Source: Escherichia coli (lineage in GTDB: Bacteria; Pseudomonadota; Gammaproteobacteria; Enterobacterales; Enterobacteriaceae). Taken from it: a stretch of DNA of 64,000 nt. Every line of letters starts with the position of its first letter. The first letter of the stretch is position 1. The translations under genes were made by a program, and so were the position numbers. The notes below the pieces were generated by a model, which was not told the DNA's origin, did not search any database, and saw only the letters and a program-made list of their open reading frames with translations. Of the stretch, positions 27,188-29,152 are shown in pieces. The stretch lies in the NCBI RefSeq assembly GCF_003334405.1, contig NZ_QOWM01000003.1; one strand, given 5' to 3'.

Positions 27188-29152
27188 GTGAGCATGGATA
27201 TAAGCGATTTTTATCAGACATTTTTTGATGAAGCGGACGAACTGTTGGCTGACATGGAGCAGCATTTGCTGGTTTTGCAGCCGGAAGCGCCAGATGCCGA
27301 ACAATTGAATGCCATCTTTCGGGCTGCCCACTCGATCAAAGGAGGGGCAGGAACTTTTGGCTTCAGCGTTTTGCAGGAAACCACGCATCTGATGGAAAAC
27401 CTGCTCGATGAAGCCAGACGAGGTGAGATGCAACTCAACACCGACATTATCAATCTGTTTTTGGAAACGAAGGACATCATGCAAGAACAGCTCGACGCTT
27501 ATAAACAGTCGCAAGAGCCGGATGCCGCCAGCTTCGATTATATCTGCCAGGCCTTGCGTCAACTGGCATTAGAAGCGAAAGGCGAAACGCCATCCGCAGT
27601 GACCCGATTAAGTGTGGTTGCCAAAAGTGAACCGCAAGATGAGCAGAGTCGCAGTCAGTCGCCGCGACGAATTATCCTTTCGCGCCTGAAGGCCGGGGAA
27701 GTCGACCTGCTGGAAGAAGAACTGGGACATCTGACAACGTTAACTGACGTGGTGAAAGGGGCGGATTCGCTCTCGGCAATATTACCGGGCGACATCGCCG
27801 AAGATGACATCACAGCGGTACTCTGTTTTGTGATTGAAGCCGATCAGATTACCTTTGAAACAGTAGAAGTCTCGCCAAAAATATCCACCCCACCAGTGCT
27901 TAAACTGGCAGCCGAACAAGCGCCAACCGGCCGCGTGGAGCGGGAAAAAACGACGCGCAGCAATGAATCCACCAGCATCCGTGTAGCGGTAGAAAAGGTT
28001 GATCAATTAATTAACCTCGTCGGCGAGCTGGTTATCACCCAGTCCATGCTTGCCCAGCGTTCCAGCAAACTGGACCCGGTTAATCATGGTGATTTGATAA
28101 CCAGCATGGGGCAGTTACAACGTAACGCCCGTGATTTGCAGGAATCAGTGATGTCGATTCGCATGATGCCGATGGAATATGTTTTTAGTCGCTATCCCCG
28201 GCTGGTGCGTGATCTGGCGGGAAAACTCGGCAAGCAGGTAGAACTGACGCTGGTGGGCAGTTCTACTGAACTCGACAAAAGCCTGATAGAACGCATTATC
28301 GACCCGCTGACCCACCTGGTACGCAATAGCCTCGATCACGGTATTGAACTGCCAGAAAAACGGCTCGCCGCAGGTAAAAACAGCGTCGGAAATTTAATTC
28401 TGTCTGCCGAACATCAGGGCGGCAACATTTGCATTGAAGTGACCGACGATGGGGCGGGGCTAAACCGTGAGCGAATTCTGGCAAAAGCGGCCTCGCAAGG
28501 TTTGACTGTCAGCGAAAACATGAGCGACGACGAAGTCGCGATGCTGATATTTGCACCTGGCTTCTCCACGGCAGAGCAGGTCACCGACGTCTCCGGGCGC
28601 GGCGTCGGCATGGACGTCGTTAAACGTAATATCCAGGAGATGGGCGGTCATGTCGAAATCCAGTCGAAGCAGGGTACTGGCACTACGATCCGCATTTTAC
28701 TGCCGCTGACGCTGGCCATCCTCGACGGCATGTCCGTACGCGTTGCGGATGAAGTTTTCATTCTGCCGCTGAATGCTGTTATGGAATCACTGCAACCCCG
28801 TGAAGCCGATCTCCATCCACTGGCCGGCGGCGAGCGGGTGCTGGAAGTGCGGGGTGAATATCTGCCCATCGTCGAACTGTGGAAAGTGTTCAACGTCGCG
28901 GGCGCGAAAACCGAAGCCACCCAGGGAATTGTGGTGATCTTACAAAGTGGCGGTCGCCGCTACGCCTTGCTGGTGGATCAATTAATTGGTCAACACCAGG
29001 TTGTGGTTAAAAACCTTGAAAGTAACTATCGCAAAGTCCCCGGCATTTCTGCTGCGACCATTCTTGGCGACGGCAGCGTGGCACTGATTGTTGATGTCTC
29101 CGCCTTGCAGGCGATAAACCGCGAACAACGTATGGCGAACACCGCCGCCTGA
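27188..29152 (+). CDS. cheA: chemotaxis histidine kinase CheA (654 aa, GTG start)
   Basis: Recognised N-terminus (V)[19 protein letters not shown] with phospho-His motif [13 protein letters not shown]; track ORF N-extended to 27134. Confidence 0.95.
27479..29152 (+). other. cheA: internal in-frame start for the short CheA isoform (CheA-S)
   Basis: ATG at 27479 (Met98, MQEQLDAY) preceded by AAGGA; established knowledge that CheA-S initiates at Met98. Confidence 0.5.

Follow-up and report, generated by a model that had tools for sequence, protein, structure and literature searches.

Does the ATG at positions 27479–27481, which lies inside the reading frame of cheA, begin a protein of its own, and which features of the surrounding DNA bear on the answer? 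The DNA in question, referred to throughout as the window, is a stretch of 64,000 nucleotides of Escherichia coli (RefSeq assembly GCF_003334405.1, contig NZ_QOWM01000003.1), with positions counted from its first letter. Taken together, the literature on E. coli K-12 and the comparison of sequences leave little doubt that translation of the chemotaxis kinase gene cheA has a second in-frame start, start(S), at this ATG, from which the short protein CheA-S is made in addition to the full-length CheA-L; no observation speaks against initiation here. The original prediction of a CheA-S start at 27479 is supported, being both correct and already known; the primary studies of start(S) and CheA-S are said to be those of Smith & Parkinson 1980, Kofoid & Parkinson 1991, McNamara & Wolfe 1997, Cantwell et al. 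2003 and Hao et al. 2009.

The cheA gene and its two translation starts

Positions 27100–29200 of the window are 100% identical to sequenced E. coli chromosomes, with a match in 5381 of 5426 complete E. coli genomes, and the window corresponds to the flhDC-motAB-cheAW-tar-tap-cheRBYZ region of this species; the gene order in a 100% identical RefSeq record is flhD, flhC, motA, motB, cheA, cheW, tar, tap and cheR. The bounds of cheA were taken from RefSeq CDS coordinates carried over from the 100% identical genome (locus position 4089 = window 27188) and, together with translation and Pfam analysis, these place the coding sequence of CheA-L at 27188–29152 on the plus strand (654 aa, GTG start, domains P1–P5). 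Pfam domains were Hpt (residues 8–100), CheY-binding (161–223), H-kinase_dim (261–324), HATPase_c (372–508) and CheW (514–640), and both the P1–P5 architecture and the flanking genes motB and cheW are those of a cheA orthologue. The preceding araFGH-otsBA-uspC-flhDC-motAB stretch (14000–27200) matched several non-laboratory E. coli genomes in a single alignment of 100% identity, and therefore the window probably carries no IS element upstream of flhDC. IS insertions at this place are found in highly motile K-12 lines.

For comparison, one genome per species was scanned, which yielded 80 Enterobacterales cheA loci and, with the window, 81 sequences; the loci span Citrobacter, Enterobacter, Kluyvera, Kosakonia, Erwinia, Pantoea, Pectobacterium, Dickeya, Serratia, Yersinia, Rahnella, Hafnia and others. 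Two loci of the scan were irregular: in L015 (Kluyvera intermedia) an in-frame stop occurs at cheA codon 129 (LAL*AKGE), and in L023 (Kluyvera genomosp. 3) cheA ends early, at 446 residues. These two genes may be pseudogenes or assembly errors.

Sequence and the Enterobacterales alignment define start(L) at 27177–27190 (plus strand) as an SD-like GAGGTGA, a 4-nt spacer and the GTG at 27188–27190, where SD stands for Shine-Dalgarno. The GAGGTGA overlaps the stop codon TGA of motB (27181–27183). Each position of the GAGGTGA and the GTG is conserved in at least 90% of the sequences (about 80 Enterobacterales loci), and the start codon is GTG in 81/81 Enterobacterales genes. When conserved structure was sought at start(L), a weak consensus fold of -1.9 kcal/mol was obtained. 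In design start(L) is the opposite of start(S), its GTG codon being weak and its GAGGTGA strong.

The ATG at 27479–27481 is codon 98 of cheA and in frame (27188 + 97 × 3 = 27479), as had been predicted. The AAGGA that was said to precede it at an appropriate spacing is present at 27470–27474, as part of a purine-rich, RBS-like GAAGGA (27469–27474); 'appropriate' was slightly generous, because the distance from the motif to the ATG is 4 nt (CATC), and a gap of this length is at the short end of usual SD spacing. The nested frame of CheA-S extends from 27479 to 29152 on the plus strand and, by translation and Pfam, encodes 557 aa, equal to residues 98–654 of CheA-L. That this isoform lacks the phosphorylation site was confirmed: the codon for His48 (27329–27331, plus strand, located by translation; the residue is invariant in 81/81) lies upstream of the ATG and outside CheA-S. 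Retained are helix E with Leu123 and Leu126 (27554–27556 and 27563–27565), both invariant in 81/81 Enterobacterales CheA sequences, and domains P2–P5. Translation of the ORF at 35472–36116 (plus strand) identified cheZ, whose product is the partner recruited to the receptor array by CheA-S; it has the apical-loop residues W94, W97 and F98, contained in a WDDWF apical motif, as expected of a cognate cheZ. Every defining feature of the CheA-L/CheA-S tandem-start locus that can be tested in sequence was found and, as judged by these features, the codon-98 start in the window is a true member of that locus.

The window gene is E. coli cheA, and the short isoform recognised in the original prediction is on record as a product of alternative translation that begins at codon ATG-98 (PMC7696710). 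Cells of E. coli K-12 RP437 contain two CheA polypeptides, the short one being dependent on codon 98; the substitution CheA-M98L eliminates CheA-S, and almost all cells then lose polar CheZ-GFP, a loss that is the same with CheZ-F98S, which is unable to bind CheA-S (PMC7696710). Expression of CheA uses two initiation codons, and a change in the first RBS shifted total CheA only moderately (PMC2716512). Met-98 is the first residue of CheA-S, and Leu123/Leu126 bind CheZ (PMC7750401). Both E. coli and Salmonella make two forms of CheA (PMC3676780). PMC8745638, which refers to McNamara & Wolfe 1997, gives 'gaagga' as the putative E. coli RBS for short cheA.

In the mechanism put forward here, the steps of initiation, array entry and CheZ binding are established by the literature for E. 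coli K-12, and the structure of the start region is proposed from comparative data. Some ribosomes start at the GTG at 27188 and produce CheA-L, and others initiate independently at AUG-98 of the same mocha operon mRNA (motA-motB-cheA-cheW) and produce CheA-S. Having neither the four-helix bundle of Hpt nor His48, CheA-S is not phosphorylated; with its dimerisation, kinase and receptor-coupling domains (P3–P5) it still enters the receptor array, where the exposed P1 remnant (Leu123/Leu126) binds CheZ, so that this CheY-P phosphatase is concentrated and stimulated there. CheA-S, a well-known example of two proteins from one gene, puts CheZ beside the kinase and shapes the spatial profile of CheY-P, and its recognition in the window in itself adds nothing new. 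What the comparison adds is that the AAGGA is lineage-specific and that the putative start(S) stem-loop and its AU-rich context form the most constrained synonymous stretch of cheA; this is a small refinement that could inform experimental work on the control of the L:S ratio.

Synonymous-site constraint and a putative stem-loop at start(S)

Per-codon synonymous entropy, corrected for amino acid, was calculated for 79 full-length genes in windows of 12 codons. The strongest synonymous-site constraint in the whole of cheA, by entropy over the Enterobacterales genes, fell on codons 82–101 (27431–27490, plus strand): the ten lowest 12-codon windows all lay within codons 81–101, the minimum was -0.50 (vs -0.34 at start(L)), and this minimum was reached by 12 of 2000 permutations within amino acids. 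Individual codon choices in this stretch were nearly uniform, with CTG for L90 in 80/81 sequences, TTT for F91 in 81/81, the non-preferred TTG for L92 in 72/81, GAA for E93 in 81/81 and ATT for I97 in 75/81. Among E. coli genomes, an 81-nt segment centred on start(S) was at least 99% identical (exact throughout the alignment) in 5344 of 5379, and a control segment around His48 reached the same level of identity in 4966 of 5379. The 61 nt around start(S) have a GC content of 39% (vs 53% for cheA) and fold more weakly than approximately 89% of cheA windows. These data agree with an interpretation of the start(S) region as a site that functions at the nucleotide level.

A TTTTTGG run (27458–27464) lies upstream of start(S), and several CheA fragments in the database (proteins P0070, P0073, P0076, P0083, P0086 and P0120), some of them labelled as from E. 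coli H413 and E1520, have readings that correspond to a 1-nt deletion in it, which may represent real mutations or sequencing errors. A 1-nt frameshift at this run would truncate CheA-L and leave the CheA-S frame from ATG98 intact.

In the E. coli sequence, a hairpin around start(S) was predicted by the MFE and centroid folds alike. Its 9-bp stem is formed by CUGUUUUUG (27455–27463) and CAAGAACAG (27482–27490), for which the consensus 3' arm is CA(A/G)GAACAG. On the plus strand, the 5' arm CTGTTTTTG (27455–27463) covers codons 90–92; the 18-nt A-rich loop GAAACGAAGGACATCATG (27464–27481), assigned from the fold and the alignment, holds both AAGGA (27470–27474) and the start(S) ATG (27479–27481); and the 3' arm (27482–27490), assigned from the fold and from pairing across species, covers codons 99–101. 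The loop ends in AUG, GGAAAC is invariant in the loop region, and the majority loop motif is AAAGAT. Isolated, the hairpin has a predicted energy of approximately -7 kcal/mol in nearly all species, and the 161-nt context of start(S) is less structured than shuffled sequences (z = +1.5). As derived from these comparative data, start(S) would sit in an AU-rich and weakly structured region, in which the stem encloses the loop with the AUG and could adjust the L:S ratio or link start(S) to the ribosomes that arrive from start(L).

Pairing across species was analysed in 72 distinct sequences. The nine pairs were formed in 98.0% of 648 cells, vs 42–66% when the partners were slid by 1 to 3 columns. 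A covariation test on the same 72 sequences found no pair changed on both sides (covariation term -0.23), 113 of 500 shuffles reached the observed pairing score, and the RNAalifold consensus energy of the stem was -1.6 kcal/mol. The stem is conserved, but covariation does not prove it as a structure, and it is inseparable from plain sequence conservation. The substitution E100D (GAT) interrupts the centre of the stem with a U-U mismatch (A1 columns 28/57, window 27458/27487) in L064, L069, L071, L075, L077, L079 and L080; the carriers are Dickeya, Pectobacterium, Brenneria, Acerihabitans and one Serratia. Some plant-pathogenic 'Erwinia' reportedly (McNamara & Wolfe 1997) do not have CheA-S, and a link between such a lack and the stem mismatch would be worth checking.

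The constraint on codons 82–101 raises the possibility that this stretch is an RNA element that does more than bind the ribosome, either a stem-loop that sets or regulates the ratio of the two products and is opened by ribosomes arriving from start(L), or a site at which a trans-acting factor recognises GGA motifs within the loop or next to it. The positions conserved at synonymous sites in the 79–81 genes include the arms of the stem and the loop, and the near-complete pairing points in the same direction. Codons 99–101, the 3' arm, would lie inside the footprint of the initiating ribosome, and therefore the stem would have to melt for initiation. Kofoid & Parkinson (1991) are said to have noted inverted repeats flanking both starts and to have suggested that these could regulate relative expression. 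During growth, the ratio of CheA-L to CheA-S reportedly shifts from 4:1 to 1:1 (PMC1447658), which speaks for such an element. The absence of compensatory double changes, the frequency with which shuffles match the pairing score and the low consensus energy argue against it, however, and much of the conservation would already follow from simple selection for a start region that is AU-rich and free of structure. A literature search for binding of CsrA to cheA found nothing relevant. An RNA element beyond ribosome binding is, in view of all this, conceivable but rather improbable. The more specific proposal, that the 36-nt stem-loop (27455–27490) is a dedicated regulatory element whose opening sets the CheA-L:CheA-S ratio and hence the amount of CheZ at the array across growth states, is put forward tentatively and we consider it unlikely; in that case ribosomes translating from start(L), or a factor with affinity for the GGA motifs of the loop, could open it.

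Distinctiveness and conservation of the upstream motif and of Met98

The original prediction drew on the combination of AAGGA and ATG and also on prior knowledge, its basis being mixed by its own account. How often such a combination arises by chance was determined with the 402 internal in-frame ATGs of 44 gene-like ORFs in the window. A 4-mer SD core at -14 to -4 preceded 18 of the 402; a 5-mer core preceded six, including codons 81 and 98 of cheA; and at 31 of the 402 the anti-SD duplex was at least as strong as the -5.4 kcal/mol of codon 98. Within cheA itself, several other in-frame NTG codons scored equal to or above codon 98. The SD-like motif before codon 98 is not more than chance gives, and the motif alone is not diagnostic. 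Recognition of the site therefore rests on prior knowledge and comparative evidence, and the result is a warning that SD-plus-ATG motifs cannot pick out internal starts from sequence alone.

Two further observations were made at these positions. The ATG of cheA codon 81 (27428–27430) has a strong SD-like GAGGTGAG directly upstream, with a gap of 2 nt, and Met81 is conserved in 79/81 Enterobacterales CheA sequences; it was rejected as a further start, since the 2-nt spacing looks too short and support in the literature is lacking, and we know of no report of its use. Read on the minus strand, 27478–27480 is the start codon of an 88-aa antisense ORF (27214–27480), which thereby overlaps the start(S) ATG. 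This ORF was rejected as a mechanical consequence of the sequence and is probably meaningless: its ATG needs C27478, which is T in most relatives.

AAGGA, which requires AAG at codon 95, was present in 7/81 sequences, namely two E. coli sequences and loci L013, L021, L030, L050 and L078. The remaining 74/81 have AAA GAT (or GAC), which changes the best anti-SD duplex from -5.4 to -3.3 kcal/mol. A Salmonella contig has AAAGATATTATG, that is AAAGAT, and AAGGA is absent. Because the motif occurs in 7/81 sequences and is missing from Salmonella, where both forms are reportedly made, AAGGA is not a conserved determinant of the start, and in E. coli it is better explained as a derived, lineage-specific strengthening of an otherwise SD-poor site. 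If the stem-loop were indeed regulatory, the AAGGA of E. coli would be a recent shift in the set-point of the L:S ratio.

Met98 was found in 81/81 Enterobacterales cheA sequences, a count that is partly ascertainment-biased in that one of the six search peptides, ETKDIMQE, contains Met98; eight loci without an exact ETKDIMQE, and so collected via other peptides, still carry it. Outside Enterobacterales, many related Beta- and Gammaproteobacteria have Leu at position 98. An independent protein search found Leu at the equivalent position in Achromobacter, Bordetella, Pandoraea, Cupriavidus, Azotobacter and Alcanivorax, and Met in Halomonas. The natural Leu in relatives and the viability of the M98L mutant together indicate that the P1 fold tolerates Leu and does not need Met at this position. 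The invariance of Met98 within Enterobacterales fits selection for a start codon.

These results bear on the idea that codon 98 is no more than an internal Met of P1, conserved for protein structure, and that AAGGA is a chance by-product of Lys-Asp codons. SD-like motifs are indeed common before internal ATGs (6 to 31 of the 402, depending on the measure), AAGGA is not conserved, and the surrounding peptide is conserved at the protein level, all of which speaks for such an explanation. It does not account for the synonymous-site constraint, which protein structure cannot explain, nor for the Leu that many relatives have naturally at this position, and for E. coli K-12 it is already refuted by the abolition of CheA-S in vivo in M98L (PMC7696710); we regard it as extremely improbable.

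The region around start(S) is AT-rich, as promoters often are. A scan of 27000–27700 for sigma-70-like promoters gave no match, with 0.4 expected by chance, and Kofoid & Parkinson (1991) are reported to have determined the N-terminal sequences of both CheA proteins directly. On these grounds, and because a point change in the ATG removes the product (PMC7696710), it is hardly credible that the short CheA is a proteolytic product of CheA-L, or is translated from an internal transcript of its own, instead of arising by internal initiation on the operon mRNA.

Related systems and other features of the window

The feature in the window does not differ from start(S)/CheA-S as known from E. coli K-12 and Salmonella, with the same gene, the same codon ATG-98, GAAGGA, a product comprising residues 98–654 and a cheZ with F98 in the cluster; in comparison with CheA-S of E. 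coli K-12, the window site is that very feature. Second in-frame starts that yield a shorter, specialised isoform, with mixed oligomers possible, are likewise present in infB (IF2 alpha/beta), clpB (ClpB-93/79) and mrcB (PBP1B). Unlike the short isoforms of these three genes, CheA-S acquires a new binding activity, that for CheZ, because a helix hidden within full-length P1 becomes exposed. The text of a Ribo-RET preprint (10.1101/520783) names infB, clpB and mrcB as the known internal starts that were recovered. The preprint is silent on cheA; such silence is an absence of evidence, and plausibly flagellar genes were poorly expressed in the strains used. [quoted passage not shown]

Several RNA features were noted elsewhere in the window. 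At 43761–44068 (plus strand) there is a full-length match to the MicL sRNA (Rfam RF02654, 382 bits), which appears to lie within a protein-coding gene, presumably cutC. The intergenic region between cheW and tar contains a match to the C0465 sRNA family at 29696–29773 on the minus strand (RF00116, 112 bits), and a match to the sRNA ES036 (CssrF) was found at 48004–48046, also on the minus strand (45.5 bits). Three adjacent tRNA genes are located at 11173–11472 on the plus strand.
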